A stretch of 42,745 bases of DNA from Candidatus Lindowbacteria bacterium RIFCSPLOWO2_12_FULL_62_27 (GCA_001784175.1 MFPR01000036.1:1-42745), one strand, 5' to 3'. Counted from the first letter of the stretch, positions 25,546-42,169 are shown. The notes: generated by a model from the letters alone, not told the origin. A program made the numbers and translations.

Positions 25546-26919
25546 CTATCCTGAAATCGGCTGGTTCATGAAGGTGAGGTATTCGAGCCGGTTGAGATTG
25601 CGGTCGAGGAAGAAATAGGCGACCGGGACGGAGACGAGGCATGCGGTGAAATATCCGTAGCCGTAGTTGGCGAATCCGAGGTTCAGCGACACCAGGGTGA
25701 AGGCGGCATTGGTGCACAGGAAGACCACCGTCGAGATCAGGGCCTCCTTGCGAAAATCAAAATAGAGCAGGACGACGAGCAGGATCAGGAAGATCGTCTG
25801 GAGGTACGCGGCGATGAAGCCGATGCGCATGATGCCGTACTGCTGGTAGCTGAAATGAAGCGCCTCGATCACAAACGGCGTCAGGACCAGCATGCAGAGC
25901 GTGATCGCGCCTTGAACCTTGATGAGCTGCCCGAGTCCCTCCCGGATGCTGCTGACGAGCCTGTCGCGTTCCCGCAGGATCTTCGACCGGTTCGCCTTGT
26001 GGATGATGGTCGCGTAATAGGTCTTGTACTGCTCGTAGAAGTCCGTTTCGATGCGGATCAAAAAGAGCGCGAAGGCCGGGATGGTGGCGAGGTAGGCCAT
26101 GAAAATGGAATTATCGTAGAGCCGGTTGGCGTAGAGCGGGCCGGTGATCTGATATCCCGACTCGCTGAGCCAGAAGATGAACTTGTCGATCCAGACGCCG
26201 AGGTTGTAGAAAAACCCGATCAGCAGGTGCGGCAGGTAGGGCCCGAAGGCCGCGAACATGTCGCGGTCGATGTAGCGGTCGGACGGAAACTCGACCATGA
26301 GGCGAAGGATCAGCCAGAAGAGGATGATGAGCTGCCCGGCCGTGAACCCGCCCAGGACGCCGATGAGACCCTGGGTCGGCGCCAGATACCACGCGCCGAG
26401 GACGCTGAAACCGGTGCCGACCAGAAACGCCGTGACAATCGCCCGGTAGTCCTTGGCCGCGCTCAGAAAAATCATGCATATCCACATGCTGCAGATGCAC
26501 AGATACAGCAGGAAGGCGATCAGGCAGTAGAGAAACGGCAGATCGCAGTGATACAAAAACGCCGCCGCGACCGGCGCCTGCGTGGCGAGCGTCACGACCC
26601 ACGTCGTGTTGAAAATCGGCAGGACCATGTGCGCCTCGTCGCGGTAGAGGCGGTCCGCGAGGTACCGCGTGACGACCATCTGCAAAATGCCGGTCATGAT
26701 GATCGAAAAGGCGTAGACGTAGTTGATGGTGGCGCCCATGATGTCGGCTTCGTGGTCGCTCAAAAAAACGCGGACGGTCCGGCCGATGACCGAGATGGCG
26801 ATGACGGTCATGAGCCACGGCCCGGAACTGATGATGGCCGCGTAGACGTAGGCCTTGATGTGGCTGGTGTAGGTATCCTCGGAGAGGATTTTGCGAAGTT
26901 CAAACCCGATGCCGGCCAT
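25546..26919 (-). CDS. pelG: Pel exopolysaccharide transporter PelG
   Basis: Diagnostic N-terminus MAGIGFELRK, SSGPW, TRYLAD, FLSAAKDY, WIDKF, ETDFY; many TM segments. Confidence 0.93.
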   Translation of the reverse strand: MAGIGFELRKILSEDTYTSHIKAYVYAAIISSGPWLMTVIAISVIGRTVRVFLSDHEADIMGATINYVYAFSIIMTGILQMVVTRYLADRLYRDEAHMVLPIFNTTWVVTLATQAPVAAAFLYHCDLPFLYCLIAFLLYLCICSMWICMIFLSAAKDYRAIVTAFLVGTGFSVLGAWYLAPTQGLIGVLGGFTAGQLIILFWLILRLMVEFPSDRYIDRDMFAAFGPYLPHLLIGFFYNLGVWIDKFIFWLSESGYQITGPLYANRLYDNSIFMAYLATIPAFALFLIRIETDFYEQYKTYYATIIHKANRSKILRERDRLVSSIREGLGQLIKVQGAITLCMLVLTPFVIEALHFSYQQYGIMRIGFIAAYLQTIFLILLVVLLYFDFRKEALISTVVFLCTNAAFTLVSLNLGFANYGYGYFTACLVSVPVAYFFLDRNLNRLEYLTFMNQPISG

Positions 26920-26920
26920 G

Positions 26921-28408
26921 TCAGCGCCCGATGACGACGTTCATGTAGTGGCGGTAGAGGTCGAAGTATTTAAAATTCAAATCGGTCTCATTGTAGAAAA
27001 GTTCCGTCCGTTTTTTTCCGGCCTGGCCCATCTTTCGCGCCATCTCCGGGTTGGAGAGGATCGTGCAGATCGCATCGGCCGTGTCCTGGGGGGAAGCGAG
27101 GTTCGTCACGAGACCGCTTTTGCCGAGGGCCCGGTCCTCGTCGGTGCGGCCGTAGAGCATTTCGGAGCAGGCGCCGACGTCGGTGGCGACGCAGGGCACG
27201 CCCTGCGTGTGCGCCTCGAGAATCACCAGCGGCTGGGCTTCGCTGACGCTCGTGAGGACCACGACGTCGAGGCCGGGATAGTATTCCTTGACGTTGATCG
27301 GCCCCGTGAAGGTGATCACGTCGTCGAGGGAGAGCATGCGGGTCAGGATCCGGCATTCCTGGTGGTAGGCCTCGTCCTCGTCGGTCGGCCCCAGGATGAG
27401 CGCCTTGACGTTCGGGAGCCGGTCTTTCACGATTTTCACCGCCTTGACGAACGTCTTCACATCCTTGATCGGAACGACCCGGCCGACGAATCCGATGTAG
27501 AGCGCGCCGGGCTCTTTCGGAAACGCGCATTTGAATCCGGAAAAGGCCTCGACGGAAATGCCGTTCGGGATGATGGAGAGTTTCGCGGGCGGCGCGCCGT
27601 CCTCGAGTTGAAGGAGCTGGTTGCCGCTGTAGAGCGTGATGATTTCGTCGGAGTACTGGTAGGTGACGCGGCTCATGAATCCGAAGAGATTGATCCACCA
27701 CTGTTTGAAAAACGACGCGCCGCCGCCCCTAACGCCCCGGCCGTAGGATTCCTCGAAGATCCATTCGGAGGAGATGATCTCGATTTTCCGTTCGTTGGTG
27801 TAGATGCCGTGTTCGGTCAGGATGAGCGGCGCGCCGTTCCGGATTTTGGCGAGCGCGCCCAGAAGCCCCGCGTAGCCGGTCGAGATGGTGTGATAGACGC
27901 GCGCCCGAGGGACCTGCGTCGCGAACACGTTGTAGAGGGGCAGATGGGTAAATCGCCAGGTCCAGAAATAGTCGATGAACGAATTTTCCGTCTCGTGTTT
28001 TTTGTAGAGCCGTTCGAGAATGCTCCAGGAACGTTTTGAGAAAAAAAACTCCCGCCAATCGATGCTGCCCTCCGGATCGTTCGCAAACAGCCGCGCGAAT
28101 GCGTCAAAGCTGTCAAGCCGGCCGTCCCAGAGTTCATCGTACAGCCGTTCGATCAGTTCCCAGCGTTGCCTGTGCCGTTTCTTGACCCGGCGCGTTTCGC
28201 GGTATTCGTGAAGGTAAATTTCCTGGATGCCGGTGATGTTGTCGGGAATCGGATATTTATACGTCCGGGCCTCGTCGCGTTCCGCCGAGATCAGAAGCAC
28301 CGAAAACTCAATGTTGGGCAGGGACCGGACGAGGTTGTAGACCCACGACGAGACGCCGCCGCGAACGTACGGAAACGTTCCCTCGAGAACGAGACAGACG
28401 TCGCTCAT
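26921..28408 (-). CDS. pelF: Pel GT4 glycosyltransferase PelF
   Basis: EGTFPYVRGGVSSW, STGYAG, LTEHGIYT, GRVVPIKD, SEAQPL, TDVG; ATG 28408 in an ATGA overlap. Confidence 0.94.
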   Translation of the reverse strand: MSDVCLVLEGTFPYVRGGVSSWVYNLVRSLPNIEFSVLLISAERDEARTYKYPIPDNITGIQEIYLHEYRETRRVKKRHRQRWELIERLYDELWDGRLDSFDAFARLFANDPEGSIDWREFFFSKRSWSILERLYKKHETENSFIDYFWTWRFTHLPLYNVFATQVPRARVYHTISTGYAGLLGALAKIRNGAPLILTEHGIYTNERKIEIISSEWIFEESYGRGVRGGGASFFKQWWINLFGFMSRVTYQYSDEIITLYSGNQLLQLEDGAPPAKLSIIPNGISVEAFSGFKCAFPKEPGALYIGFVGRVVPIKDVKTFVKAVKIVKDRLPNVKALILGPTDEDEAYHQECRILTRMLSLDDVITFTGPINVKEYYPGLDVVVLTSVSEAQPLVILEAHTQGVPCVATDVGACSEMLYGRTDEDRALGKSGLVTNLASPQDTADAICTILSNPEMARKMGQAGKKRTELFYNETDLNFKYFDLYRHYMNVVIGR

Positions 28409-30357
28409 GCCCCCGACACCTTGCGGCGGATGATCTGCCGGACCTGCGCGGCGGTCGGCTCCGGGCAATCCGACTGCAGGACGTCGAAGAGGGTGTCGAT
28501 CTCGTCCTGAAAGGAGGCCTCGGCAAGATATTTCAGCAGGAGCGGCTCCGGCAAAATAGGCCGCTGTTCGAGGAAGACGTCCACGATATAGTCCGGCACC
28601 GGCTCATTCCGCGCCCGGATCACGTCGAACAGAATCTCGAAATAAATCGCAGCCCGCCTGGAGCAGAGGCCGGGCAAAAAGAGCTCATACAGTTCCAATC
28701 CGAACTGGGCGCTCCGCGCGGATACGATGGCGCGGATGCGGTCCATATAAGGAACGAATGCCGGCGTGTCGGCGAGCGTCAACAGGTCTTCCAGCGTCTT
28801 GAGGCCGAGACCGGGATGCTCCTGCAGTTTCATGAGGAGATCCAGGGCCCAGCGCCGGAACTCCTCTGTCCGGATGTCCTGTTTAAGATGTTCGATGAGC
28901 CCGTGGACGGCGTCGGGGCTTCGGCGGATGATCGCGGCCGCGGCGCCCGCGCAGGCTTCGCGTGTGTGCGGGTCGGGATCGGTTTCATCCATGAGGAGAA
29001 GCCTGTCGAGAATGTCCGGGTCCGGGTAATGCTCAAGGAGACCGATGGCGAGGTAGCGGATGTTGAAGTTTTCAGAATAGATCAGCCGGATGATTTCGTC
29101 CCAGAGCGGTTTGTCAAAATCCGTCTTTCGGGCCAGTTCAGACAGGAACTGCAGGATGGTTTGAATCAGGATCGCGTTTTCTTCCTGCGGAAGCGACAAG
29201 TATCGAACCAGGCTGTTAAACTGGTGATGCCGGCTCGCCAATCGGCCGATGGAGAGTACCGCCGAATAGCTGAGAAGCGGATCGCCCGTCAGAAACCGTT
29301 CCAGGACCGGGACGGCTTCGATACATCCGCAGGCCGCCAGCGCCTCGATCGCCGCCTGTTTGAGCAGCGCGTCCTCCTGCCGGTCCAGGATGCGGACGAG
29401 CGTGTTGAAGGCGTCGCGCGTTTCGAGCCGCCCGATGAGTTCGATGAGGCCGGCGCGGACGTCCGGGTCCCGGACGGCTTGAAACCGGGCTTGGTAGCGG
29501 CGGAGCCGAAGCTCCTCCGGCGCCCGATTCAGAAGCCACCGGCTCATGTTCCGGAGCGCCGTGTCAGCGTTCGAGATCACGTGATCGATCAAGAAATCAA
29601 CGGCCGCCGGATGGTGAAACTCGGACAGCCGCTTCATCATCTCCTGCTTGACCTCCACATTCTCCTCCGTCCGCGCCGCCCGCAGGACCGCCCGGACGGT
29701 CCGGCCGCCCCTGCGGCGGGTCACGGCCCAGACGGCCATTCGCCGGATCTGCTCCGACGGATGTTTGAGGAGCGGCAGGAAATGCTTCCAGTACTTTGTT
29801 TCGTTGTAATCGATCAAGGTGACCATGGCTTGCCGGACGACGTCGGTATCCGTGTTCTTGAGGAGCCTGCGAATGGGCCGACCGGCGGTCGTGTCCTTTA
29901 TTTTTTCGAGGACCTTGAGCGCGCGAATGAGGACTTTGGGATCGGGACTGTCAAGCTTTCGAATGACCTGCGGGACGAGGCGGAAGATTTTCTGGTCAGC
30001 GACGATTTCCAGGGCGGTCTCCGATGCCACCGCGCTTTCCGACACGATCATCCGGGAGAGGGTCGGAAGGATGGTACGCTCGGGAAACCGTTTCAGGGCC
30101 GTGAGGGCGGCCTGCTGAACCTCCTTGTCCTCATGAAAACAGTATCGCTCCAGGAGCGGCAGGCCGTTGGAGTTCCTGGACAGCTCAATGTACTTGCAGA
30201 ACAGGATCGCGGAATACTTGTCGGAAACGAGGGCGTGAATCCGGCCCGGCAGGTTGGGCCGGTCCAGGACGACGAGTTTTTCAACCGCCTCTTCGCGGAC
30301 GTCCCATGCCGGATCGGCGAATTCGCGGAGGGCGACTTCGAGGTCGAGGGCTTTCAT
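28405..30357 (-). CDS. HEAT/armadillo-repeat protein (650 aa, no signal peptide)
   Basis: Repeated (D/H)xxxxVRxxAxxxL units, e.g. DPAWDVREEAVEKL, HPSEQIRRMAVWAV, DPDVRAGLIELIG. Confidence 0.85.
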   Translation of the reverse strand: MKALDLEVALREFADPAWDVREEAVEKLVVLDRPNLPGRIHALVSDKYSAILFCKYIELSRNSNGLPLLERYCFHEDKEVQQAALTALKRFPERTILPTLSRMIVSESAVASETALEIVADQKIFRLVPQVIRKLDSPDPKVLIRALKVLEKIKDTTAGRPIRRLLKNTDTDVVRQAMVTLIDYNETKYWKHFLPLLKHPSEQIRRMAVWAVTRRRGGRTVRAVLRAARTEENVEVKQEMMKRLSEFHHPAAVDFLIDHVISNADTALRNMSRWLLNRAPEELRLRRYQARFQAVRDPDVRAGLIELIGRLETRDAFNTLVRILDRQEDALLKQAAIEALAACGCIEAVPVLERFLTGDPLLSYSAVLSIGRLASRHHQFNSLVRYLSLPQEENAILIQTILQFLSELARKTDFDKPLWDEIIRLIYSENFNIRYLAIGLLEHYPDPDILDRLLLMDETDPDPHTREACAGAAAAIIRRSPDAVHGLIEHLKQDIRTEEFRRWALDLLMKLQEHPGLGLKTLEDLLTLADTPAFVPYMDRIRAIVSARSAQFGLELYELFLPGLCSRRAAIYFEILFDVIRARNEPVPDYIVDVFLEQRPILPEPLLLKYLAEASFQDEIDTLFDVLQSDCPEPTAAQVRQIIRRKVSGA

Positions 30358-30360
30358 CCG

Positions 30361-31380
30361 CTACGAAAGGCTCTCCGCCCACCACGGCGCGATGAGCTGA
30401 TGGGTGGTGTTGAGGTCGCCGAAGGCGCGCGTCGCCCGGCAATCCTCGGCCACCCGCAGAAAGTCGCGTCTCCTGAAAAAAATCTCGGCCCGCCAGAAAT
30501 AGGCGTCGACATTTTTGGGATCCATCTCGATGGCCCGGCTCAGATGGCGCTCGGCCTCGTCGATCCGGCCCAATTTGAACATGACGCGTCCCATGCTGAA
30601 ATGGGTTTCACTGTCCTGCTCGTACGAGAGGACCTTCCCGAAGGTTTCCGCGCATTGGTCGAGATGGTAGCGCTCGCCGATGGCGTCGAGGGTCCCGGCC
30701 TGGATGTATTCGAGGTAGGCGTATCCGAGTTCCTTGAGGAGGAGGACATCCGCGGCCCGGGCCGCCGATTCCGCCGCCAGCGTGCGGATCCGCTTGCTGA
30801 GTTTTTCGTCGATCTTCGCCAGCGACGACGACGCGTAAAACCGGACCTCGCGGTCGGAGTCCTTCAGGAGATTCTGAAGCAGTCTGACCGAATCGCGGGT
30901 CTCGAGTTTGCCGAGATACTTTGTCGCGGCCCGCCGGAGCGTCACGTCGCGGCCATGGATGAGGTCGACCAGCGGCTGGATTTCCATCTGCCGGCCGATC
31001 TCCTCCTCGATGTCCATGATCCGGCCGAGCTGGTCCTCCCGCTGCATCTCCGTCTCGATCGCTTTGTGGTAATCCTCCATCACGCCCACTTTCAGCGCGT
31101 CCCGCCGGATGAGCATGACGAGCAGCACGAACGAAAAAGCGGCGCCGCCGATCGGATAGAAGAAGAGCGTGCCCAGAAAGATCGCCAGACGCTGGCCGTC
31201 AAAATCCTTCCGGACGTTTCCGGCGGCGGTCAGGGCCGCGGTGGAAACGAGGTGCAGGCACACGGGCAGGATCCAGTCCCGCAGGACATAGAGGTTCGTC
31301 CTGGTAAAGAGCACCCAGACGGATGCGCCCTCGAACGTCGCGGCGATCGAGACACAGAGGAATACGGCGAATTTGCTCAA
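30361..31380 (-). CDS. pelE: PelE-like protein (TM + HEAT + TPR)
   Basis: N-terminal TMs, LKDSDREVRFYA HEAT unit, C-terminal TPRs; lies between pelD-like and pelF. Confidence 0.72.
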   Translation of the reverse strand: MSKFAVFLCVSIAATFEGASVWVLFTRTNLYVLRDWILPVCLHLVSTAALTAAGNVRKDFDGQRLAIFLGTLFFYPIGGAAFSFVLLVMLIRRDALKVGVMEDYHKAIETEMQREDQLGRIMDIEEEIGRQMEIQPLVDLIHGRDVTLRRAATKYLGKLETRDSVRLLQNLLKDSDREVRFYASSSLAKIDEKLSKRIRTLAAESAARAADVLLLKELGYAYLEYIQAGTLDAIGERYHLDQCAETFGKVLSYEQDSETHFSMGRVMFKLGRIDEAERHLSRAIEMDPKNVDAYFWRAEIFFRRRDFLRVAEDCRATRAFGDLNTTHQLIAPWWAESLS

Positions 31381-32762
31381 GACGGCGCCGAAAATTTCCG
31401 CTCGACGCGCCCCACGAGATCGTCCTGCGTTTCATCGCTCATCTGGTACGAGTCGAATTCGGTCCGAAACCGGAATTCCCGCCCGGGGTCGCGGTAGGGC
31501 CGGAACTCGAACGCGGCGATGTCGGCGCGGATTTTCTCCAGCCGTTCCGCCGCCTCCTCGTCGCCTTTTGCGATCATGAGAATGCAGAGTTGGTCGTCGG
31601 TTTTGTATTTGGACACGATATCGACATCGGTGAGATGCGTTTTCAGTATCCGGTTGATCGACTTCAGCAGCCGGATCAGGGACGGGGCCGGGATCTGATC
31701 GACGTCCTGAAAGCGCATGATGGCCAGGGACAGCGGCATCGCATAGCGCGCCGCGCGGTCCACTTCCTCCTTCAAGCGCCGCTGGAGATACGTGTAATTG
31801 TAGAGATCGAGCGCCTCGTCCAGGATGTTCTTGCTCTTGTGCCACTCGAATTCATCGATCCGCTCGATGGTCTTGGCGATCCATTCGGCGATCATTTCGA
31901 ACATGCGGATGGAATTGGGATTGAATTTCAAAAACGGCACGTCATAGACCTCGATAAATCCGTTCAGGCGGCCGTTGGAATCGAGGAGCGGCCCCGCCAT
32001 GAGAGCCTCTTCGGGCTGCGCGCCCTGCGCCTCCCCCGCCCGGCGGCGGACGGTGTCCCGGACGCTTTTGACGGCCTTGTGCTCGATGGCCATCTGCGCG
32101 AGGCCGCGGGCCTGGCTCAACCGTTCGGGCGGGGCCGTGGTCCAGCGGCCTCCGGCGCGCACAAAGCCCTCCTTGTCCTTCAAGTACAGCGCAAACGCGT
32201 TGAAGGAGAGCTGGTGGGCGAGGATGTCCTCGACGGCGGCCGCGAGTTCCTGCCGGTCGGTCGTATCGAGTTTTTTGGCGGATTCGTAGAGAACCGAGAA
32301 GGTCGAGAAATTTCCGACGACGGCCTTTTCGAGTTCGGCGTTCGTGTAGTTGAGCACCTTGAGATGTTCATCCGCCGCCTTGAATTTTTCCTCGAGCAGG
32401 TCGATCCGTCCCTGGAGTTCAACGGCCTTGCGCTTGAAGCGCTCGCGGATCTCCCCCAGCGTGAACCCCGTGAACGTGAGCACGGCCGGCGGGAAATAGG
32501 CGTCGAACTCGAACATCACCCAGATGGACATGATTTTCTGATTGGCGTAAACGCAGGCGATGTACGCGACCGCGGCGGCCAGCCCGGCAAACCGGCCTTC
32601 CCGGACGCCGTACCAGCTCGCGATGTAGACGACGACGGCCATGAAGGGATGGAGCTTGATCGAAATGAAACCGATGTCCTTGCCGCCGGCGATGAGGCTG
32701 GCGGCGATGATGAGGAGGAGGGCGCCTAGGGATTCAAGATACGGAAGTAGTTTTTTTCTCAT
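31377..32762 (-). CDS. pelD: PelD-like protein (TM + GAF + degenerate GGDEF)
   Basis: N-terminal TMs (IASWYG), coiled coil, GAF (AGPLLD...VPFLKFN), GGDEF-like domain (LDLYNYTY...RYAMPLSLAI...KTDDQL). Confidence 0.75.
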   Translation of the reverse strand: MRKKLLPYLESLGALLLIIAASLIAGGKDIGFISIKLHPFMAVVVYIASWYGVREGRFAGLAAAVAYIACVYANQKIMSIWVMFEFDAYFPPAVLTFTGFTLGEIRERFKRKAVELQGRIDLLEEKFKAADEHLKVLNYTNAELEKAVVGNFSTFSVLYESAKKLDTTDRQELAAAVEDILAHQLSFNAFALYLKDKEGFVRAGGRWTTAPPERLSQARGLAQMAIEHKAVKSVRDTVRRRAGEAQGAQPEEALMAGPLLDSNGRLNGFIEVYDVPFLKFNPNSIRMFEMIAEWIAKTIERIDEFEWHKSKNILDEALDLYNYTYLQRRLKEEVDRAARYAMPLSLAIMRFQDVDQIPAPSLIRLLKSINRILKTHLTDVDIVSKYKTDDQLCILMIAKGDEEAAERLEKIRADIAAFEFRPYRDPGREFRFRTEFDSYQMSDETQDDLVGRVERKFSAPS

Positions 32763-33126
32763 TCACAAGCGTTTTTCGGATGATGTCAATGATTTCCCTG
32801 GGCACGAAGGGTTTTTTGACGTACTGGCACTTGTGGTCGAAAATCTGGCGGCGCTCCGCGTCGTCCAGGACCTTTGCGCTCAACACCAGGATCGGCGTGC
32901 CGCGGTTCAGATCGGTTTCGCGGACCTTCGTGACCAGATCCAGTCCGCTCATCTGGGGCATGACGATGTCGGTCACGATCAGGCCGTAGGGCTCCTTGGT
33001 GATCCGCTCGAGCGCGGTCACCGGATTGTCGAACCGCACGACCTCGAGCTTGTACATCCTCAGCGCGGCCGTCAGGAGCATCGTGATTTCCTTTTCGTCG
33101 TCGACGACCAGGATTTGAGATTGCAT
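32734..33126 (-). CDS. Single-domain response regulator (CheY-like)
   Basis: ILVVDDE, TDIVMP (phospho-Asp), VLSA, KKPF; overlaps the pelD-like start by 29 nt. Confidence 0.93.
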   Translation of the reverse strand: MQSQILVVDDEKEITMLLTAALRMYKLEVVRFDNPVTALERITKEPYGLIVTDIVMPQMSGLDLVTKVRETDLNRGTPILVLSAKVLDDAERRQIFDHKCQYVKKPFVPREIIDIIRKTLVNEKKTTSVS

Positions 33127-33130
33127 GATC

Positions 33131-33613
33131 CTATTTGGAGGCGGACAGCCGGTCCGCCGCCTTCTGACAGATTCGGCGGGTCACTTCGGTCAGCGACTCG
33201 CCGCCGGTGAACGAGGCGGCGCCGCGGTCGGCGCAGGTCGCCGACCAGACGGTTTTTCCGGTCTTCGCGGAAACGGCCCGGATCGTGAACCCGACGACGC
33301 TCTGCTCGGTGAGGCCGTGCCGGTAATGATATTCCGTGATCCGGCCCATGATCAGGTGATCCGCGCCGGCGGTCGCGGCCGCCGCGCCGGCGGCCGTCTC
33401 GGGAATGAGGGGAATCCCGCGCGATTCCAGTTCCACGCGCAAAATGCCCATGACCGCCTGGGACGCGTTGGGCTGATCCGTCAAATTCTCAAACTCCACG
33501 AGGGCCAGCGTGCCAAGCCCCGCCGGCGCCGGCGCTTCCCGAACGGCCTCACGGTTCGAGACACACCCCACCTGCATGAGAAGTCCGGCGGCCAGGATCG
33601 CAATCAACTTCAT
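33131..33613 (-). CDS. pelC: PelC-like lipoprotein
   Basis: Lipobox QVGC; FENLTDQPNA, GRITEYHYRHGL, VGFT...TGKTVWS resemble PelC blocks. Confidence 0.8.
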   Translation of the reverse strand: MKLIAILAAGLLMQVGCVSNREAVREAPAPAGLGTLALVEFENLTDQPNASQAVMGILRVELESRGIPLIPETAAGAAAATAGADHLIMGRITEYHYRHGLTEQSVVGFTIRAVSAKTGKTVWSATCADRGAASFTGGESLTEVTRRICQKAADRLSASK

Positions 33614-33645
33614 ACTCCGGAGATTACTTCAGCCGCCCGATGAAG

Positions 33646-34902
33646 TCAAAAGTAATGGGTGACTTTCGCCTGAAAGAGCCGGGTTTTGCCGGTGCCGGTG
33701 ACGGAGCTTTCCGACGCCATCTCGTAGGCCGACTCGAGCAGCGTCGCCGCGTCGACGTGGGCGAAGAGCTGAACGCGGTAGCCGTAGGACTCGAATGAAA
33801 ACAGGTCGATGTTCCGGGAGTTGTCGTGCGCCGAGAAAACGTCGGCTTCCGCGAAATACCGTTTTGAAAAATGCCGGCCGGCGTTCAGGTGCAGTCCGAT
33901 CTGGTTGATGGTTTTGGCCAGCGCCACCACGCTCACATATTCGTCCTTCGGCGAATTCCGGATTCCATAATACCCGAGATACCCTCCGGCATAGCCTGCG
34001 TGGCCGCTCGGATCGGCCACCGTCCGGAACGCCCGATAGCCGACCGTCATTTCGTAGATGCGCCCAGGGCCGAAACTCCGCGTCTTGTGAATTTTGTACT
34101 CCCTGTATTCGAACGCCGCGGACCAGTTGAGGATCTGGTTGGCGGATTGGGAGATGATCTGCGTCGTCGATCCCCGGTATGCGTCGTAATAGCCGTTCGC
34201 GAGGTACGCTTCGACCGGATCGTCCCAGAGTTTCCCGAGGACGGCGTCCAAACGGTAATCCCGGATTTCATCCGGCCGGTACACCAGCGTCGTGCCGATG
34301 GAGACCCGGCCGTCCGAATCGCTGTAAGCCTCGCCGAGGCCGGCCCATAGTTTGAAATCAAACGGCCAGCCATGCACGCGTCCCCATTCGACCTGCCATG
34401 CGTTTGCGCGCGGGTGGACGCTCTGCTTCAGGAAGGATTCCGCGTGCTTGTACTGCCTGAGTCCGGTCGCCAATCGAATGTACGTCCGGTCCTGCAGCGG
34501 GAGATAGGCCTCCACGTCATGCGCCGCGCGGTCCTGGGCGGCAAATCGGCGGAGCGAGAGGTCGTAGGCCAGCCGCCGTCCATACTGATACTTGAGCTGA
34601 GTGTAGAGTTTTCGGACGTCCTCGTGTTTCGGATCGATCTGGAGGACCTTGCCGTAGAGTTCCAGCGTTCTGTCCCAGTGCCCGAGCCTCTGATAGGCGT
34701 AGGCGAGGTCGATGAGGAGGACTGCGTTGGCCGGGTCTTCCTTCACGGCCCGATCGAGAAGTTCGGCCGCCTCCCGGTACCGTTTGGTGTCGATGTAGAG
34801 CCGGCCGAGCAGAAACGCCTCCTGGCTTTCCTGCTTCGCGCGCGCGGGACCGGCCAGAACGCAGAGTAAAACAAGCGCGATCCAGGGCCGCGTCCGGTTC
34901 AT
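33646..34902 (-). CDS. Secreted TPR plus predicted beta-barrel protein (PelB C-terminal-like)
   Basis: Signal peptide (PARA|K), about 2 TPRs, aromatic alternating beta strands, terminal VTHYF; sits directly before pelC. Confidence 0.65.
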   Translation of the reverse strand: MNRTRPWIALVLLCVLAGPARAKQESQEAFLLGRLYIDTKRYREAAELLDRAVKEDPANAVLLIDLAYAYQRLGHWDRTLELYGKVLQIDPKHEDVRKLYTQLKYQYGRRLAYDLSLRRFAAQDRAAHDVEAYLPLQDRTYIRLATGLRQYKHAESFLKQSVHPRANAWQVEWGRVHGWPFDFKLWAGLGEAYSDSDGRVSIGTTLVYRPDEIRDYRLDAVLGKLWDDPVEAYLANGYYDAYRGSTTQIISQSANQILNWSAAFEYREYKIHKTRSFGPGRIYEMTVGYRAFRTVADPSGHAGYAGGYLGYYGIRNSPKDEYVSVVALAKTINQIGLHLNAGRHFSKRYFAEADVFSAHDNSRNIDLFSFESYGYRVQLFAHVDAATLLESAYEMASESSVTGTGKTRLFQAKVTHYF

Positions 34903-37340
34903 GGCGTTCGGGATTTCAAGACGATTTCGGCCTCGCTGAATTGACGGGTCTGCATGAGCGCCTCCGCGAAATTGAGCCGGATTTCACGATTGTCCGGCGT
35001 TTCCCGGTACAGTTTCCGGTACAGGTCGACGGCTTCGGGCAACCGGACCAGCCGTATGAGCACCGATGCGTACAAGACGCGGACCTCCCGCGTTTTCTTC
35101 TTCTCGTCCGGCAGTTTCGGGTACTGTCGGTAGATCGCCTCATAGAGTCGCCGGGCGTCCGCCGGTTTTCGCCAGTACGTATATATTTCGGCATCCCGGA
35201 ACAGTACTTCAAGATCGTCCGGTTTCAGCGCCATGCACTTTCGGAATGCGGCGTCCGCTTCCTTGTAGCGCTGGTTCCAGTAGAGCACCGTGGCCTTCAT
35301 CTTCTGGACGTCATAGTCCTCCGGATTTTTCTCCAGGATCCTGTCGTAGAATCGGACCGCGAGATCAATCTTCTCGGCCCAGAGAAACTGCTGGGCCAGG
35401 ACGTTGAGGGTCCCGGCGTTCTTGCCGAACCGCGTCTCGATCCGGGCCAGCGCCTTTTCGTATTTTGGGGCGTCGCCGGTCTCGAGATATCCGACGACCA
35501 GCCGCACGTGGTTTTCGACGTCGGCCGGATCGGCCGCCGCAATGCGCTCGCGGATCGTGAGGATTTTATTTGGCGGCGCCCGGGTCTCCTCATAGAGGCG
35601 AACGAGCAGTTTGAGCGGGTAGGGATCGGCCCATCCCCCCGCGTGGCGCTCAAGGATCTCCGCCGCCCGGCCATTCTGATTCTGCGCCGAAAACCATTCG
35701 GCCAGGAGGATCGCCTCATGCGGATCGAGGGCCTGAAGACGGTATTTGATCTCATACGCGGCCGCGATCTGCCCGGCATGCCGGCTGGCTCGGTACTGGT
35801 TCAGAAGCCGCCGGACCCATTGCATCTTTTCCGAATCGGGCGCCCGGGCCATCTCACCTTCGACCTTCCGGATCGCCTGATCGTGGATGCGGTCGCGCTC
35901 GGCCTCAAGTCGAGCGATCCTCCCGGCGTCGCCTGGCGAGGCGACCCTGACTGCGTGCGAATACGCGCCCAGGCGCTGGTATATATCTGCCAGCTCCGAA
36001 TGGCGTTGGGAGTCGAGCAGCCGGGCAAGATCGGGGGTGGAGGGATGCGTGAACAGATAAAAATCTCCAAGCGTCGATCTCAGGCCTGCGACCGACGTGT
36101 GGGCGCCGGCATTCTTGAAAAAATAGGCGATCAGAGGATCGATCGTTTCAGCCCTCCTCCGCCAATCGAGCAGCGCCTGTCGTTCCGGCGTGAGGCCGCC
36201 ATCGATTGGGGCGCCGATTTCCGCGGCGGCGATGAACGTCGCGAAGAGGTCTTCGTGGAGGCGGTCGCGAAGGCCGGTGTCGTTGAGCAAGCGCGCCGGT
36301 TTGAGGATCCCGCGCCCGCCTTTCAGCCGGAGCGCCAGGTAATCGTCGAATTCTTCGGGGCGGAGCGCATGCGAATCCATCAGCCGGGCGTACAGGCCGA
36401 GCGCCTTCTGCACGGCGCCGCTCCAGGAGTGGTAGTGGATGGCGTTTTCAAGATCGTCCCGCAATCCGCCGCGCTCGTACAGCGATTCCGTGAGTCCCGC
36501 GGCCTCGGCGAAATGTCCCGTCTGGGCGTAGAGTTCGGAAATCAGCCGCGTCGCGGCCGTATCGGCGCCGAAACGTTTCTCCATCCTCGCGGCGATTTCG
36601 TAGCCCTTCGGAAGGTCCCGGTTCCAGATGTGGATTTTCGCAAGTTTTTCATAAATCTCCATCCGGCCCGGGTCCGCCTTCAGAATGTCCTCGTACTTGC
36701 CGATCGCGCGCCCGGCGTCTTTTTTCCAAAAGTAGGCTTCGGCCAGTTCCTCCTTCCATTCGGGAACGTCCGGCTGACTGCGCTCCAGCCCCTCGTAGAG
36801 ACGAATCATGTCATCCACGCGCTTCAAGGACGAATAGAGCTGGGCAAGCCGTCGCCGGTGTTCGTGGTCCGACGGGTTCAATTTCACGTAAGCTTCAAGA
36901 TACTTGGCCGCCTTTTCGAGCCGCCCGTACCAGATCAGGTCGTCGACCAGTTTTTTCAAAATGTCCCGGTCCTTGGGATTTTTGACGTGCATGTCCTCAT
37001 AAATGTCCGTGGCTTTCTCGGGATGCTCCGTCCAGGCGTAGAGTTTCGCCAGATTCTGGAGGATGTCCTTGTTGTCGGGAGACGTCTTCAGGAGTTCCTG
37101 ATGGAATGCGATGGCCTTGTTGAGATCACCGACCTCCTCGGTGATGTTGGCATACTCCTTCACCGCGTAAAAAACGTCGCCGCCCTTCTGCAGGATCTTG
37201 TTCAACTCGACGAAGGCCATGTCGATCTGGTAGGAACGGAAATAGATGCGGGCGAGATCCAGTTGCTGGGGATAGATCACGACGGCCGTGCCGATCACCA
37301 GGGCATAAAACAGAAGGAGGCTGCGGAACCTGGCTTTCAC
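34899..37340 (-). CDS. Large membrane-anchored or secreted TPR protein (PelB N-terminal-like)
   Basis: N-terminal hydrophobic segment and many TPRs (LAKLYAW, LAEAYFW, LAQQFLW); 4-nt overlaps at both ends. Confidence 0.75.
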   Translation of the reverse strand: MKARFRSLLLFYALVIGTAVVIYPQQLDLARIYFRSYQIDMAFVELNKILQKGGDVFYAVKEYANITEEVGDLNKAIAFHQELLKTSPDNKDILQNLAKLYAWTEHPEKATDIYEDMHVKNPKDRDILKKLVDDLIWYGRLEKAAKYLEAYVKLNPSDHEHRRRLAQLYSSLKRVDDMIRLYEGLERSQPDVPEWKEELAEAYFWKKDAGRAIGKYEDILKADPGRMEIYEKLAKIHIWNRDLPKGYEIAARMEKRFGADTAATRLISELYAQTGHFAEAAGLTESLYERGGLRDDLENAIHYHSWSGAVQKALGLYARLMDSHALRPEEFDDYLALRLKGGRGILKPARLLNDTGLRDRLHEDLFATFIAAAEIGAPIDGGLTPERQALLDWRRRAETIDPLIAYFFKNAGAHTSVAGLRSTLGDFYLFTHPSTPDLARLLDSQRHSELADIYQRLGAYSHAVRVASPGDAGRIARLEAERDRIHDQAIRKVEGEMARAPDSEKMQWVRRLLNQYRASRHAGQIAAAYEIKYRLQALDPHEAILLAEWFSAQNQNGRAAEILERHAGGWADPYPLKLLVRLYEETRAPPNKILTIRERIAAADPADVENHVRLVVGYLETGDAPKYEKALARIETRFGKNAGTLNVLAQQFLWAEKIDLAVRFYDRILEKNPEDYDVQKMKATVLYWNQRYKEADAAFRKCMALKPDDLEVLFRDAEIYTYWRKPADARRLYEAIYRQYPKLPDEKKKTREVRVLYASVLIRLVRLPEAVDLYRKLYRETPDNREIRLNFAEALMQTRQFSEAEIVLKSRTP

Positions 37341-39505
37341 GGCCGGAAAATCTCCACCGTTACGCGGCCGTAGGGATCATGCTCGAAAGCCAGTACGCCG
37401 TTTTTCGGCTGAACGGCGAACTCCCGCGACCTTCCCTGCCCGGGCGTGATCGACACCCGGCAGGCGCCGCCGTCGCCGGGAACGGCGATCCGGAACCGGC
37501 CGCGGCCCTTGATGTCCGCGTCGAATCGGATCTTGCGCCCGTCGGCGCTCCACCGGGAAATTTCGGCGGACGATTCGACCAGATACGGCCGGTGCGCGCC
37601 GCCTGTCCCGAACACGATTCGATGTTCCGGACTTTCGTCCAGATGCGCGTACAGGAGATCGCCGTCCCGCTTGTAGCCCAGAAGGCCCGCGCTCCGCGCC
37701 AGGTCCGGCGCCTGGCCGGGGGGCAGTCGCTCAAACCGGATCGTCCGGCACCCGCCGTTGTCGCGGATCGAATAGTCCAGAGGCCCCTGGCGGTCGATGC
37801 GGGTCGAAAAGAATCCGTGCATCGTCAGGATGTATTCGCTCGTGAACATCGGATAAATGTCCTGCGCGAGCGCGCCGTCATAGATTTTTTTGAGGGCGTT
37901 CAGGGCGCCGATCCGCTCGGCGGAATAGAAATGGTAATAGACGTTGATCGGCCTCAGGCGGATCGGCTCCCATGTCCTGGCGAAGGTGGTGAGGACGAGC
38001 TGAAATCCGTGGAAGGGCCCGGTCCAGAGATTGGTGTAGACGTTTTCGTTCAGGTTCGACGCGTAATACTGGTGGCGCGTTCCGGCCGGCCCGACCTGCC
38101 GGCGGATCGGGGAGACGTACATGTACGACGGATAAAACGCGTCGAACCGCGCGCCGGCGCCGTTGATGCTCAGAAGGCCGTGCTTCTGAATGACGCCGAG
38201 CGTCGCGTCGTCCGGCAGGCAGTCGCCGGACCAGAAGAGCGTCCGTGTTTTCTTTTCCGGCGGCGCCAGGTGCGCGTTGATGTAATCGACGGAGGCCTTG
38301 ATCTCGTCCTCGTTGTTCATGGCATAGCCGCCCTTGATCCGCCGCACGTGCCGGAGAATGTATGAACTCTGCCTGACATATTTTTCGCCGTACTCGGTGA
38401 TGACTTTCCGTCCGGCCTCCCCGCCGGCGCGGTCGAGCCCGGCCCAGACGAGCGGGTGGGTGAATGTGTGGCTGGCCGGTTCGACGTGCCGCCTCCGGAA
38501 TATTTTCCGCGCAAGTTCGACGTTTTCCGGGCTGCCCAGATACTCGGGCATGATCTCGGCCGTGATGACGGAGACGCTGATGGGGACGAGGTACGAGTCG
38601 AGGATTTCGCCGAGGATGATTTTGGAGCACGGGTCGTGTTTGCCGTGCAGCGCGAGATTGTTGAACCCGTCGCCGTCGATATGCGAATAGAAAATCCGCT
38701 TCCCGTTCCGGACCGCGATGTCGGGCGCGACCACGGGGTCGAGGCGCAGGGCCTCCCGGACGAAGAGGAAGGGGTTGAGCCGCCAAAGGCGCTTGCCGGT
38801 TTCCTCGTCCTCGTAATAGACATATCCCTCCCCCGCCATCCCGCCGCGCGGCGTCGTCACAATGGCGTCCGACACCGCCGCGCCGCCGAAGGGGTTTCGC
38901 CGACTCACGCGCAAAAATGTCTTGTTGGCCGGATCGGTCGACCGGATCCCTTCAAAATGGCCCACCTCGTGGACCAGCGATCGCTCGAATGCGGCCATGG
39001 CGGTGTCGACGATCTCGATCTCGATTTCATGCGCGCCGTATCCGGATTCGAAGGAATGCACAAGACCCATCCGGCCCAGAAGGCCGTTGATGTCCGATTC
39101 GGCGGTTTTCCGGCCGGTCTTGCGGTCCTCGTAGACGCCGAGATTCTCGAGGACCATGAGTTTTTTCCCCTCGTCGAGCCGGTCGGTCAGCCATCGGCAC
39201 AGCGCGCGCGCCGACGGATTGTCGGGCGTGTTGAACCACGTCACGACGGCGCCGCAGGCCGCCATCGTTTTGCTGTCCGGCAGGGGCGCCGCGATGTCGT
39301 AGTAGTCGACGTCGAATCCGTAGTGGTTCAGGACCATTTCGAAGTGGCGGTGAATCCGGGTCTCCCGCGGCGTCGCTTCAAACTCCGAGTTGTACAGCGC
39401 GCATATTTTGCGGTTGAGCGGTTCGGCCGTCGCGCTTGGAGCGCCGAGCGCCGTCGCCAGCAGCGCCGGCAGGACGGCGGCGAATCTGCCCAACCCCCCG
39501 GACAT
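37337..39505 (-). CDS. PelA-like polysaccharide deacetylase (no hydrolase domain)
   Basis: Signal peptide; HIDGDGF, ASHTFTHP, FWSGDC, INGAG, NENVYTN, PINVYYHFYS match the PelA C-terminal region. Confidence 0.85.
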   Translation of the reverse strand: MSGGLGRFAAVLPALLATALGAPSATAEPLNRKICALYNSEFEATPRETRIHRHFEMVLNHYGFDVDYYDIAAPLPDSKTMAACGAVVTWFNTPDNPSARALCRWLTDRLDEGKKLMVLENLGVYEDRKTGRKTAESDINGLLGRMGLVHSFESGYGAHEIEIEIVDTAMAAFERSLVHEVGHFEGIRSTDPANKTFLRVSRRNPFGGAAVSDAIVTTPRGGMAGEGYVYYEDEETGKRLWRLNPFLFVREALRLDPVVAPDIAVRNGKRIFYSHIDGDGFNNLALHGKHDPCSKIILGEILDSYLVPISVSVITAEIMPEYLGSPENVELARKIFRRRHVEPASHTFTHPLVWAGLDRAGGEAGRKVITEYGEKYVRQSSYILRHVRRIKGGYAMNNEDEIKASVDYINAHLAPPEKKTRTLFWSGDCLPDDATLGVIQKHGLLSINGAGARFDAFYPSYMYVSPIRRQVGPAGTRHQYYASNLNENVYTNLWTGPFHGFQLVLTTFARTWEPIRLRPINVYYHFYSAERIGALNALKKIYDGALAQDIYPMFTSEYILTMHGFFSTRIDRQGPLDYSIRDNGGCRTIRFERLPPGQAPDLARSAGLLGYKRDGDLLYAHLDESPEHRIVFGTGGAHRPYLVESSAEISRWSADGRKIRFDADIKGRGRFRIAVPGDGGACRVSITPGQGRSREFAVQPKNGVLAFEHDPYGRVTVEIFRP

Positions 39506-39514
39506 CGCGGTCGA

Positions 39515-40363
39515 TCAGCCGGCGCGGTAGAGCCGGCGCAGATCGATTTCGGCGATATACAGGCGGAAGCGGTGGGCCATGCAGAGTTCCCGGCTGCGGC
39601 GGATCAAGTCCGGCTGTTCCGCGGTCGCATAGTCGATCACGAAGACCGTTTTGCCGGTCCGGCGCTGAAAGGCTGTGAGGCGATCGAGGATCCACTGCGT
39701 CGCCTCCGGATCCTGCGGGCCGTAGGCCCGTGCGGAAAAGTCGTACAGCGTCGCCAGATCCTCGACCAGGACGGCGTCGATGTGGGTATCGATTTTTTCG
39801 AGGATGTCGATGCCGCTGTTGGTGAGGAGGGTGAGTCCCGGATACCTGTCACGAATTTTCCGGATCAGCGCCGCGGCCGCGTCGATTTTTCCCGCCGATC
39901 CCGGCGCGTTCGAAATCTCGCCGTAGACGGCTTCATTCAAGGTATCGAGAAACAGGCCGTTGAACCCGCGGGCTACAATGGAGGCAATGGCGGTGTCGAG
40001 AAGAAGCGCCTGCCACTCCTCGCTTCGAATGTCCACCGCGATGTCGCCGGGCCAGTTCGGATTTTCTTTTCCGACCCAGGGTTTATTCCGGATCAGCGGC
40101 CAGTAGGGCCGATAGGTCCCGCACTCGCCGATGCTGAGGTACCCGATTTTTTTTGCCGGCGCGAGGTTCCGGACATCCGGCCATTCGTCCGGCTCGAGGA
40201 TCGCCAGATCGACCGCTGCAAGTTCGCCCGGCGGAATCGCCGGGCCGAAATAGCAGACCCAGCCGCCGGGATCAAACGGCGGCGGCGTTGTCGCCGGTCC
40301 CGAACAGGCGCAGAGAAGCGCGAGCGCCAGACCGATGAACCGTGCCGAAAACGCGCGCCGCAT
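39515..40363 (-). CDS. Lipoprotein endo-alpha-1,4-polygalactosaminidase-like hydrolase (GH114/GH166, PelA N-terminal-like)
   Basis: ATG 40363, lipobox-like LLCACSG; IGYLSIGE, FNGLFLDTL, AVLVED, VIDY. Confidence 0.82.
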   Translation of the reverse strand: MRRAFSARFIGLALALLCACSGPATTPPPFDPGGWVCYFGPAIPPGELAAVDLAILEPDEWPDVRNLAPAKKIGYLSIGECGTYRPYWPLIRNKPWVGKENPNWPGDIAVDIRSEEWQALLLDTAIASIVARGFNGLFLDTLNEAVYGEISNAPGSAGKIDAAAALIRKIRDRYPGLTLLTNSGIDILEKIDTHIDAVLVEDLATLYDFSARAYGPQDPEATQWILDRLTAFQRRTGKTVFVIDYATAEQPDLIRRSRELCMAHRFRLYIAEIDLRRLYRAG

Positions 40364-40389
40364 GCGATTTCGCGAAGTGGGTGGGCCGA

Positions 40390-40572
40390 TCAGCCGGCCC
40401 TGGCGGTCAACCGGACGGAAGCGACAAGCTCTTTGAGCCCGTCGGCCAGCGAGAACGCGGGCGCGTATCCAAGAATCCGGCGGGCTTTCGAATGGCCGCC
40501 GTTCGAAACAAGCGCCCCGGCGATGTGCGAGCCGATGAATCCGCAGCCGCCGGTGATCGCGTAGACGCTCAT
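40390..40572 (-). pseudogene. Internally deleted NAD-dependent epimerase (pelX-like remnant)
   Basis: N-terminal ITGGCGFIGSH joined in frame to C-terminal SKARRILGYAPAFSLADGL; the catalytic core is missing. Confidence 0.8.
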
Positions 40573-41057
40573 GCGGGATCAGGTCTCCCGGGGCGGCAGT
40601 TTTTTCCGCGGTCGTCCATGCGATCGTTCTCCAACTGCGACAGTTTCTGCAACCGGTGGAACACGGCGTAATCCGCCGCGCTGCGCTCCACTCCCTTCTC
40701 GGACGACGCCGCGACATCGCTGATCGCGGTGAGCCATTCGACGCAAAGGTCACATATCCCGTCCGTCACGGGCTTTGCTCCCTTCAGAAGGGGATACAGC
40801 ACTTCGTCCAGCGCCGCGCCGAGGTCTGCGAGGGTCTGGAACCCGTACATGCTGGCGGCGCCTTTCATCGAATGCGCGGCGCGGAAAATCTCGTTGACGG
40901 GGCTGAGATTGGCCTTGTTTTCCTGCATGTCCGCGACCAGGGACCTGAGTTGTGCAACCTTATCCGGCAGATCGGACGCGTAGATGATCCGGAGCCTCCG
41001 CACTTCATCATCGATGGCCGAATCGAACTGCCCGGGCACCGGCAGGTCGGTGCTCAT
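40569..41057 (-). CDS. Stand-alone Hpt (histidine phosphotransfer) protein
   Basis: IFRAAHSMKGAASMYGF motif; ATGA overlap with the epimerase remnant. Confidence 0.9.
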   Translation of the reverse strand: MSTDLPVPGQFDSAIDDEVRRLRIIYASDLPDKVAQLRSLVADMQENKANLSPVNEIFRAAHSMKGAASMYGFQTLADLGAALDEVLYPLLKGAKPVTDGICDLCVEWLTAISDVAASSEKGVERSAADYAVFHRLQKLSQLENDRMDDRGKNCRPGRPDPA

Positions 41058-41155
41058 GCGACGTGATGGAGCCTCGACAGGGCGGACTCCAAGTTCGCGG
41101 CCATGGACAAATAATGATAGGAAATTTCATTTTCTGCCGCCACCTCCATGATGCG

Positions 41156-41184
41156 AATATAGCGTGAAACGGAGCGGGATGCAA
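41156..41184 (-). promoter_or_regulatory. Putative promoter of the hpt-pel operon
   Basis: Minus strand TTGCAT (41184-41179), 17 bp, TATATT (41161-41156). Confidence 0.4.
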
Positions 41185-41522
41185 CGATTTTGACGATCTG
41201 GCGCGGGATGCGGACGGAATCGGGTTGAACTGGATGTGAAAACGCCGGCGGACCAGGCCGTGCATTCTTAGATTGCCCCCTTTTTTCAGGGACTCCGGGT
41301 CATCCCAACAAAACAATTCCTGTCACGAAACCATCCGGCGCTGAACAGTCCCGCGTCGATGGACCCTTCGGTCCCGCATCATCAGGTTTCTGATATTGAA
41401 CAAAATACGCGCTTTCTTTCGAAGGAGTGCGATTCGGAAAGGGTTTTGCACGAACAACTCGCAAAGAATGCAAACTACTTAAAACAACCAAATCAACGAA
41501 TGTGCGTGAATGGGGGTTGAGG

Positions 41523-42131
41523 GTGACACAAGGGGAAGAACAGGAAAGATCGTTTATCGGAACGAAGGAGGCGGCCAAACTGTTGAGCGTTGCGCCAACG
41601 ACGGTCCAGCGCTGGATCGACTCCGGTATCCTGCGGTCATACCGCACACCCGGCGGCCATCGACGCGTGCGGCGCAACGATATGGCCGAATTTGGCAAGG
41701 AACACAAATATCCTCTCCCGCCCGGACTTGGTGAGTCAAGCGGCGCGCGTGTGCTCGTGGTCGACGACTCCTCGTCCACGCTGAAAATGCTCAAACGAAA
41801 AATTCTTGAGAAATTCCCCGACGTCGCCGTGGAAACCGCCACGAACGGCATCGAAGCCCTTCTCAAAATCGGCCATGCCAAACCGGACGTGATGATCCTC
41901 GACATCATCCTGCCCGAGATGGACGGCGTGGAGGTCATCCGCCGCATCAAAAAGACGCGGTCCTACGACGACATCAAAATCCTCGCCATCACCGCCTACG
42001 GCAAAAAAATCGGAGACCGCGCCATGGCGGCGGGCGCCACCGCGTTTTTCGCAAAAAATGATCTCGCCCGGATGTTCGACGCGCTGGCAACCCTGCTGGC
42101 CGCAGGCGCAAGGGGCGCAAAAACAGAGTGA
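41523..42131 (+). CDS. Response regulator with N-terminal excisionase/MerR-like HTH and C-terminal REC
   Basis: GTKEAAKLLSVAPTTVQRWIDSG...YRTPGGHRR; VLVVDD, ILDIILP, ITA, AK. GTG 41523 chosen as start (uncertain). Confidence 0.88.
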   Translation: MTQGEEQERSFIGTKEAAKLLSVAPTTVQRWIDSGILRSYRTPGGHRRVRRNDMAEFGKEHKYPLPPGLGESSGARVLVVDDSSSTLKMLKRKILEKFPDVAVETATNGIEALLKIGHAKPDVMILDIILPEMDGVEVIRRIKKTRSYDDIKILAITAYGKKIGDRAMAAGATAFFAKNDLARMFDALATLLAAGARGAKTE

Positions 42132-42169
42132 TCCATGGGCCGCGGGCCCACAAAAAGGGAGGTGTTGTC

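Follow-up and report, generated by a model that had tools for sequence, protein, structure and literature searches.

A Pel locus with a receiver and a HEAT-repeat protein among its synthase genes suggests phosphate input besides c-di-GMP

What switches on a Pel exopolysaccharide machine whose operon carries two-component proteins and whose PelD has an altered site for cyclic di-GMP (c-di-GMP)? The question is raised by a 42,745-bp stretch of DNA from Candidatus Lindowbacteria bacterium RIFCSPLOWO2_12_FULL_62_27 (GCA_001784175.1 MFPR01000036.1:1-42745), here called the window, which is the entire contig C36 of a 4.39-Mb genome in 44 contigs (G000). In the pel systems studied so far, post-translational activation occurs through c-di-GMP binding to PelD, as stated in the parts of the source consulted (PMC7112168). 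Open reading frames (ORFs) of the window were identified by Pfam, NCBIfam and PDB sequence searches. Thirteen of them lie on the minus strand from 41057 to 25546, with gaps of -64 to +32 nucleotides (nt), in the order histidine phosphotransfer (Hpt) protein, epimerase remnant, split PelA, a putative split PelB, a PelC-like lipoprotein, receiver (REC), PelD, PelE, HEAT-repeat protein, PelF and PelG. A gene for a regulator with helix-turn-helix (HTH) and REC domains diverges from them. This is the layout given by an initial annotation made from the sequence alone, and it held throughout, the epimerase remnant being verified by comparison with a genome of the sister genus (G002). The annotation's description of the Hpt protein and the receiver as intact, and of the RxxD site of PelD as altered, was likewise borne out by the residues given below. 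The sequence suggests that a phosphate relay, besides the usual c-di-GMP, switches the Pel machine on. Taken jointly with this relay, the view that the window holds a working Pel exopolysaccharide locus of distinct, recurrent design is one that we mildly favour.

The receiver and the HEAT-repeat protein

The receiver gene and the synthase genes are listed here in operon order, with protein lengths in amino acids (aa).

32734..33126, minus strand: stand-alone receiver of 130 aa (Pfam Response_reg, E 6.6e-21), overlapping the pelD start by 29 nt
31377..32762, minus strand: PelD-like protein with a hydrophobic N-terminus, GAF and a degenerate GGDEF (Pfam GAF, GGDEF)
30361..31380, minus strand: PelE-like membrane protein with HEAT and TPR repeats (hydrophobic N-terminus; Pfam HEAT_2, TPR)
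28405..30357, minus strand: soluble 650-aa HEAT-repeat protein between pelE and pelF (Pfam HEAT_2, E 1.9e-39)
26921..28468, minus strand: PelF glycosyltransferase of family GT4 (NCBIfam NF038011 PelF equivalog, 512 bits against a cut-off of 100)
25546..26919, minus strand: PelG membrane protein (Pfam PF16933, E 3e-140, profile positions 1-452 of 452)

PelG was found in 20 of 401 genomes sampled across bacteria. A receiver gene directly before pelD, together with a gene for a HEAT protein of ~650 aa between pelE and pelF, was present in the source genome, in G002 and in the unrelated genomes G149 and G307, and the HEAT proteins in this slot are homologues. The collection searched contains no more than four species genomes from the phylum of the source genome. 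For the phylum of G307, the search matched a HEAT homologue in 28 of 93 genomes. Of these 28 loci, 20 were examined; the eight set aside were the five weakest, two located at the start of a contig and one divided between two contigs. The HEAT match lay between pelE and pelF in 18 of the 20 loci; in the other two (L068 and L076) pelE was not called. A receiver stood directly before pelD in all 20, identified by ORF labelling in 16 and by tblastn at the expected place in four. A receiver precedes pelD in 24 of the 24 HEAT-type loci examined (G000, G002, G149, G307 and the 20 further loci), and none was found before pelD in pel loci without a separate HEAT gene, one of which (L039) ends too near pelD to tell. 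The position of the PelE-like gene between pelD and pelF is conserved across related loci. In the phylum of G149 the HEAT protein was matched in two of 401 genomes, one of them G149 itself, and its occurrence there is thus sporadic. At a locus of another genome (G222), the slot preceding pelD holds a YcgR-like PilZN-PilZ protein and no receiver (L047:6477-7148); this slot may accept different regulatory adaptors.

Two-component genes surround many of these loci. The G307 operon is headed by a PAS-HisKA-HATPase-REC hybrid kinase and a second receiver, while divergent from the pel genes of G149 lie genes for a DUF4832 protein, a long PAS kinase, a receiver, a REC-PAS kinase, a REC-GGDEF protein, a further receiver and an Hpt protein. 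Among the 20 further loci, a second, head receiver precedes the GH114 or pelA gene in 15 and an Hpt protein occurs in one; a HisKA and/or HATPase kinase lies within the stretch examined in nine, three of these kinases being fused to GGDEF. Four of the 20 have no receiver, kinase or Hpt protein at the head, and one is cut. Two-component parts are a regular companion of the Pel design with receiver and HEAT protein, and their make-up varies by lineage. The initial annotation had expected both the receiver and the Hpt protein to be conserved in related pel loci, which proved right for the receiver (24 of 24) and wrong for the Hpt protein (4 of 24). The three GGDEF-fused histidine kinases carry the GGDEF at their C-terminus and head their loci (L067:15924-17366, L069:2-826 and L076:2881-4791); such fusions could emit phosphate and c-di-GMP from one sensor.

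The pocket of the window's receiver is intact (D9/D10, D53, S83 and K105). Across all 20 pelD-adjacent receivers aligned, D10, D53, S/T83, K105 and P106 are invariant, and residue 9 is D in 18 and E in two. The receiver is 31-35% identical to its counterparts in G149 and G307, compared with 19-29% to other receivers. The ratio of nonsynonymous to synonymous substitution rates (dN/dS) relative to G002 was 0.22 for the receiver, 0.17 for the HEAT protein, 0.12 for PelD, 0.09 for PelF and 0.10 for PelG, and on these values the idea of a pseudogene cluster was rejected. That the locus is decaying in this organism, with no regulation at work, is highly improbable for the same reason and because all 11 pel-type ORFs, the receiver and the Hpt protein are open and full length. 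Signs of damage do exist, since the epimerase is cut down to 60 codons and an insertion sequence (IS) cuts a periplasmic binding protein (PBP) gene upstream of chemosensory genes; other epimerase genes are, however, present in the genome on contigs C20 and C13.

Translation of PelF probably begins at the ATG of residue 21, a position that would abut the stop of the HEAT gene. In a genome with no receiver before pelD and with RxxD kept (G240), PelF is a 778-aa protein with an N-terminal HEAT-repeat region of ~290 aa (L038:2503-4839), a fusion that hints at contact between the HEAT protein and PelF. Complex prediction for the receiver with the cytoplasmic part of PelD (residues 120-461, with alignments) gave 0.01 and 0.00 against a mark of 0.32, and counts neither way.

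PelD and its c-di-GMP site

A profile of the PelD family (46 members) matches the solved PelD of P. aeruginosa (4dmz/4dn0, E 6e-14) over both GAF and GGDEF, which identifies the window protein as a true PelD relative. In alignment to diguanylate cyclases, its GG[DE]EF position reads KTDDQ, and the I-site, RxxD, located five residues upstream of that position, reads T378-D-V-D381 and so departs from RxxD. In P. aeruginosa PelD, c-di-GMP is contacted by Arg367, Asp370 and Arg402; B. cereus likewise depends on RxxD both to bind c-di-GMP and to form biofilm, and the Arg of the motif is required for c-di-GMP binding by PelD of both species, according to the sections consulted of PMC7112168. The Arg position is T or A in all four closest PelD homologues, and TDVD is shared by the source genome and G002. 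When 153 PelD-family proteins were aligned, 108 had R..D, 43 (~28%) had other residues and two were gapped. Judged from these alignments, the loss of RxxD in the window PelD is real, yet not rare in the family. Searches for close relatives of this PelD returned four homologues (word-index search), one short locus (scan of genome contigs), and only the window's contig and the G002 contig (metagenome scan). The PelD of G149 is a longer protein of 692 aa, with a C-terminal extension of ~210 aa that has no Pfam match and with GEFV in place of RxxD (L037:6877-8955); a representative family member, P0024 (692 aa), is alike.

The initial annotation had predicted that receiver, Hpt and HEAT genes would co-occur with loss of RxxD in PelD. 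They do not. RxxD is kept in 20 of the 24 loci with receiver and HEAT protein and lost in four, namely those of G000 and G002 (TDVD), G149 (GEFV) and G880 (QETD), and the 43 family members lacking R..D show that the motif is often absent anyway. Loci that lack a separate HEAT gene contributed nine PelD proteins with an alignable I-site region, of which seven keep RxxD and two, of one family, do not. The proposal that receiver and HEAT protein mark RxxD loss was rejected on the intact motif in these 20 loci, which argues that the receiver did not arise as a substitute for c-di-GMP and that there is no general link. Elsewhere, the receiver looks like an added input beside c-di-GMP, and any replacement of c-di-GMP would have come later and in no more than a few lineages, that of the source genome included. 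The annotation's larger claim, that control had been rewired from c-di-GMP to a phosphorelay, thus survives in part: the I-site Arg is replaced and the signalling genes are conserved, and such rewiring is at best lineage-specific.

It is also conceivable, if unlikely, that c-di-GMP is still the main activator in this organism, acting via PelD, the HEAT protein or PelE despite TxxD, with the receiver tuning the response or adding a second condition. The 20 loci that keep RxxD are in line with this, as is the retention of the motif Asp (D381) in the window PelD. Four of the six other GGDEF proteins of the source genome keep GGEEF, which indicates that the organism has not given up c-di-GMP and likewise speaks for this reading. 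The three kinase-GGDEF fusions (L067, L069 and L076) and the REC-GGDEF protein of the G149 cluster adjoin loci of this type and fit continued use of c-di-GMP. Set against this are the need for the RxxD Arg in P. aeruginosa and B. cereus PelD, as reported in the consulted parts of PMC7112168, its replacement by T or A in all four closest homologues, and the absence of GGDEF genes from the 19 ORFs scanned over the opening 20 kb of C43, a stretch that includes the chemosensory cluster of this contig, the probable neighbour of the window.

The operon head and the chemosensory cluster that probably adjoins it

The features at the upstream end of the operon are as follows.

40569..41057, minus strand: stand-alone Hpt phosphotransfer protein of 162 aa, the operon's first gene (Pfam Hpt, E 2.2e-12)
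40390..40572, minus strand: remnant (60 aa) of a sugar epimerase of the short-chain dehydrogenase/reductase (SDR) type, its ATG overlapping the Hpt stop
41427..42131, plus strand: divergent HTH-REC regulator with an HTH of MerR/excisionase type (Pfam HTH_17, Response_reg)
42128..42652, plus strand: PstS-like PBP, N-terminal 175 codons, cut by the IS (Pfam PBP_like_2, profile positions 17-138)
42653..42745, no strand assigned: left end of an unassembled IS (its alignable 87 bases match the end of contig C4 exactly)

The Hpt protein has an intact H-S-M-K-G (H-x-x-K-G) stretch, which we take to be the phospho-His motif. It is the sole short Hpt ORF among six Hpt matches in the source genome, and the only homologue there of the Hpt protein that in G002 is sited between che and pel genes (37% identity). 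The epimerase remnant aligns in two parts to an intact 417-codon epimerase in the same place in G002, residues 1-34 to 100-131 and residues 28-60 to 385-417 (88% identical), indicating an in-frame internal deletion of ~258 codons.

No kinase domain was found by Pfam among the 37 window ORFs scanned, as the initial annotation had stated. Since the window is a whole contig, this describes the assembly and not the chromosome. The annotation placed a hybrid kinase elsewhere in the genome, and a CheA-REC hybrid indeed lies just across an IS-broken contig junction. Contig C36 stops because this IS copy is unassembled. Its 20-nt terminal repeat recurs at the ends of C20 and C42, and an inverted copy lies at C43:60-79. 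An 11-bp direct repeat, the target duplication, flanks the IS on both C36 and C43 (window 42642-42745; C43:1-90, L064). The missing end of the PBP gene is at C43:97-408, in frame, and matches PBP_like_2 positions 201-266 (E 7.6e-5, below the family cut-off). The IS, the target duplication and the split in-frame PBP gene together bear the mark of a single IS copy and argue that C36 and C43 are neighbours. IS left ends also close C4, C20 and C42, and only one right end, that at the start of C43, is assembled.

Beyond the PBP gene, C43 encodes a methyl-accepting chemotaxis protein (MCP), CheB, two CheW and CheR (Pfam on C43:508-8479), and a 956-aa Hpt-Hpt-CheA-CheW-REC hybrid kinase (C43:5609-8479). 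The genes after this kinase form an unusual tail for a chemosensory cluster: a three-REC protein, CheX, a receiver and a 1143-aa CheX-FapA fusion (L064:8480-14267). In G002 the connection between chemosensory and pel genes can be followed on one strand of contig C45, which carries MCP, CheB, CheR, CheA-REC, Hpt-REC, Hpt, a receiver, one gene on the plus strand, then the epimerase, GH114, PelA C-terminal part and TPR genes, with the remainder of the pel operon on two further short contigs. The chemosensory cluster of G002 is orthologous to that of C43 (40-55% identity), and the Wsp-type gene set of MCP, CheW, CheR, CheB and CheA with a C-terminal receiver was recognised by Pfam in both. A WspR-type REC-GGDEF protein was not among them, as no GGDEF domain was found in the 19 ORFs scanned of C43:1-20000 or in 14 ORFs of G002 C45.

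These observations point to a relay that would run as follows. The synthase set PelD-PelE-PelF-PelG would carry two extra cytoplasmic proteins, the stand-alone receiver as a regulatory subunit of the inner-membrane synthase assembly and the HEAT protein of ~650 aa as a scaffold on PelF. The Wsp-like array (MCP, two CheW, CheR, CheB and CheA-REC), encoded divergently across the IS, would phosphorylate its own receiver domain. The operon's Hpt protein would take the phosphate from the CheA receiver domain and hand it on to the pelD-adjacent receiver, which, once phosphorylated, would act on the PelD/PelE/HEAT/PelF assembly and turn polymerisation on. On balance we lean towards this reading overall, in which a Wsp-like array signals through Hpt to the pelD-adjacent receiver and so activates Pel synthase assembly. 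As PelD here lacks the RxxD Arg, phosphate input probably took over in the lineage of the source genome, while in most relatives the receiver would be a second input. A more specific version, in which the phosphorylated receiver replaces c-di-GMP as the allosteric activator of a nucleotide-blind PelD, fed from the chemosensory array through CheA-REC and Hpt, with the HEAT protein docked on PelF, is possible and distinctly more doubtful. What the sequences show directly is which genes are present, their order, conservation and neighbourhood, the intact signalling residues and the altered I-site; we infer every phosphotransfer step, the target of the receiver and the independence from c-di-GMP.

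Several observations weigh against the relay, beginning with the RxxD kept by most such loci, the retained D381 and the GGDEF-containing signalling proteins described above. The Hpt protein occurs at only four of the 24 loci with receiver and HEAT protein and is only 36-37% identical to its G002 counterpart, compared with 72-89% for the pel proteins. No fusion of receiver and PelD was present among 20 longer PelD-family proteins scanned. The C36-C43 junction is deduced from sequence and not spanned by reads. The chemosensory genes of the source genome are divergent from pel and not co-directional with it, and they may suffer a polar effect from the IS in the PBP gene.

The signalling genes may instead act only on transcription, from Hpt through HTH-REC to the pel promoter, or only in the chemosensory pathway; in this reading the receiver, a CheY-like adaptor or a sink for phosphate, would not act directly on the synthase. 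The HTH-REC regulator has the DD, D and K positions in receiver alignment, and it is the first gene of a plus-strand unit that runs on into the chemosensory cluster. As its HTH begins at residue 45, its translation probably starts downstream of 41427. It diverges from the operon and shares a control region with it, and chemosensory clusters often hold several CheY-like sinks, C43 having a multi-REC protein, CheX and one more receiver. We nevertheless consider a purely transcriptional or sink role quite unlikely. The slot of the receiver before pelD is exact in 24 of 24 loci from three distant lineages, some without chemosensory genes or a kinase nearby, and its gene overlaps the pelD start. 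Moreover, no orthologue of HTH-REC was found beside pel in G002, where there are only paralogues of ~42% identity. Scans of the control region (41000-41600) for sigma-70 promoters and terminators returned nothing, using models that may not fit the host phylum; downstream of pelG, the same kinds of model, with the same limit, gave no terminator and a single promoter-like site, which belongs to the following gene.

Remaining Pel genes and known systems

The middle of the operon supplies the other Pel functions.

39515..40363, minus strand: GH114-type lipoprotein, a glycoside hydrolase that makes up the hydrolase half of the split PelA (Pfam Glyco_hydro_114, E 1.2e-17)
37337..39505, minus strand: PelA C-terminal part of 722 aa (phmmer E 6.4e-76 to solved PelA 9cgy, residues 246-872 of 900)
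34899..37340, minus strand: 813-aa TPR protein, PelB-like periplasmic scaffold part (many TPR families; weak PgaA and BcsC TPR matches)
33646..34902, minus strand: 418-aa protein, candidate PelB-like porin part (TPR only at residues 30-110)
33131..33613, minus strand: PelC-like small lipoprotein of 160 aa (N-terminal signal with Cys; no Pfam match)

The hydrolase and deacetylase parts of PelA are both present by sequence match, as two genes. The GH114 protein has a lipoprotein-like signal ending in LLCAC, and a separate GH114 gene occurs in many related loci. The region of PelA that matches the 722-aa protein holds the deacetylase domain in P. aeruginosa, as described in the consulted part of PMC10269871. 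The 722-aa protein itself has no Pfam or NCBIfam match, so domain-based annotation would miss a split PelA of this kind. In a locus of G889 (L071:12887-15766), GH114 and the PelA C-terminal part form a single 959-aa protein, a fused PelA that coexists within one phylum with the two-gene form found in most of its loci. In the candidate porin part, the C-terminal ~300 aa have no family match, and its position is kept in G002, G149 and others. The PelC-like protein was matched by phmmer to genes in the PelC position of other pel loci (E 4e-13 to 7e-4).

Adjoining pelG, at 21316-25476, are a gene for a B12-binding radical SAM protein (minus strand) and one for an 878-aa VIT-vWA protein (plus strand). 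Transposase genes of IS200 type (Y1_Tnp) lie a few kb from pelG in the window (19716-20708) and directly after pelG of G307 (L046:19121-19750).

Compared with pelABCDEFG of P. aeruginosa, the locus has PelF, PelG, a PelD with membrane part, GAF and degenerate GGDEF, PelE, the PelA functions, a putative PelB-type TPR protein and a candidate PelC-type lipoprotein, in an order that is alike overall. It differs in the split PelA and the putative split PelB, the receiver before pelD, the 650-aa HEAT protein between pelE and pelF, the Hpt protein at the head and TDVD in PelD. Streptococci, whose PelD has no GGDEF domain, already provide known examples of Pel loci independent of c-di-GMP, and the Gram-positive pelDEADAFG operons, which include this streptococcal PelD, thus show that the c-di-GMP input of PelD can be lost from a Pel locus; for streptococci, the authors propose other post-translational control, possibly protein phosphorylation by a CotH-like kinase (PMC7112168, sections consulted). 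In streptococci the whole GGDEF is gone and there are no c-di-GMP enzymes, according to the same sections, whereas the window PelD keeps the domain with a point change and the genome keeps cyclases. The extra parts in the window are two-component proteins and not CotH.

The chemosensory side has two relatives. In Pseudomonas, the Wsp system (WspA-F with WspR) increases c-di-GMP and, through it, Pel output. The cluster described here resembles it in that MCP, CheW, CheR, CheB and CheA with a C-terminal receiver adjoin polymer genes, and differs in that neither the G000 nor the G002 cluster has a WspR-type REC-GGDEF protein; Hpt proteins, and a receiver inside the pel operon, are found instead. 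In these two genomes, phosphate and not c-di-GMP would be the form in which the Hpt protein and the receiver pass on the signal. The Dif chemosensory system of Myxococcus xanthus acts via EpsW, a regulator consisting of a single domain that contacts the priming enzyme EpsZ directly and stimulates it, so that exopolysaccharide synthesis is activated post-translationally (PMC12802240, in the part consulted). Like EpsW, the window's receiver stands alone within an exopolysaccharide locus and is linked to a chemosensory kinase, in the window by gene position only. The Dif/EpsW pathway, as that part of the source describes it, is Wzx/Wzy-dependent and targets the phosphoglycosyl transferase EpsZ, whereas the window encodes a synthase-dependent Pel system with a proposed interposed Hpt step. 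By analogy, Dif/EpsW is the nearest tested precedent. No paper describing a Pel locus with receiver, Hpt, HEAT or chemosensory genes was found in the literature search. The main text of an operon survey (PMC7112194) lacks the terms 'response regulator', 'receiver', 'HEAT' and 'two-component', and its supplements may list extra genes.

The lineage of the source genome, in which the c-di-GMP site is gone and cyclases remain, offers a natural test case for whether phosphate alone can suffice. Hpt, receiver and HEAT proteins are small and soluble and so suit biochemistry although the organism is uncultured, and since a protein activator can be trapped and mapped, the action of PelD on the synthase becomes a testable question. 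If a phosphorylated receiver does replace c-di-GMP here, this would be a synthase-dependent exopolysaccharide machine that answers to a phosphorelay and not to a second messenger. A Pel design that is widespread and has a phospho-receiver and a HEAT subunit of its own would give a synthase-dependent polysaccharide machine a second control route, one that acts on it directly.

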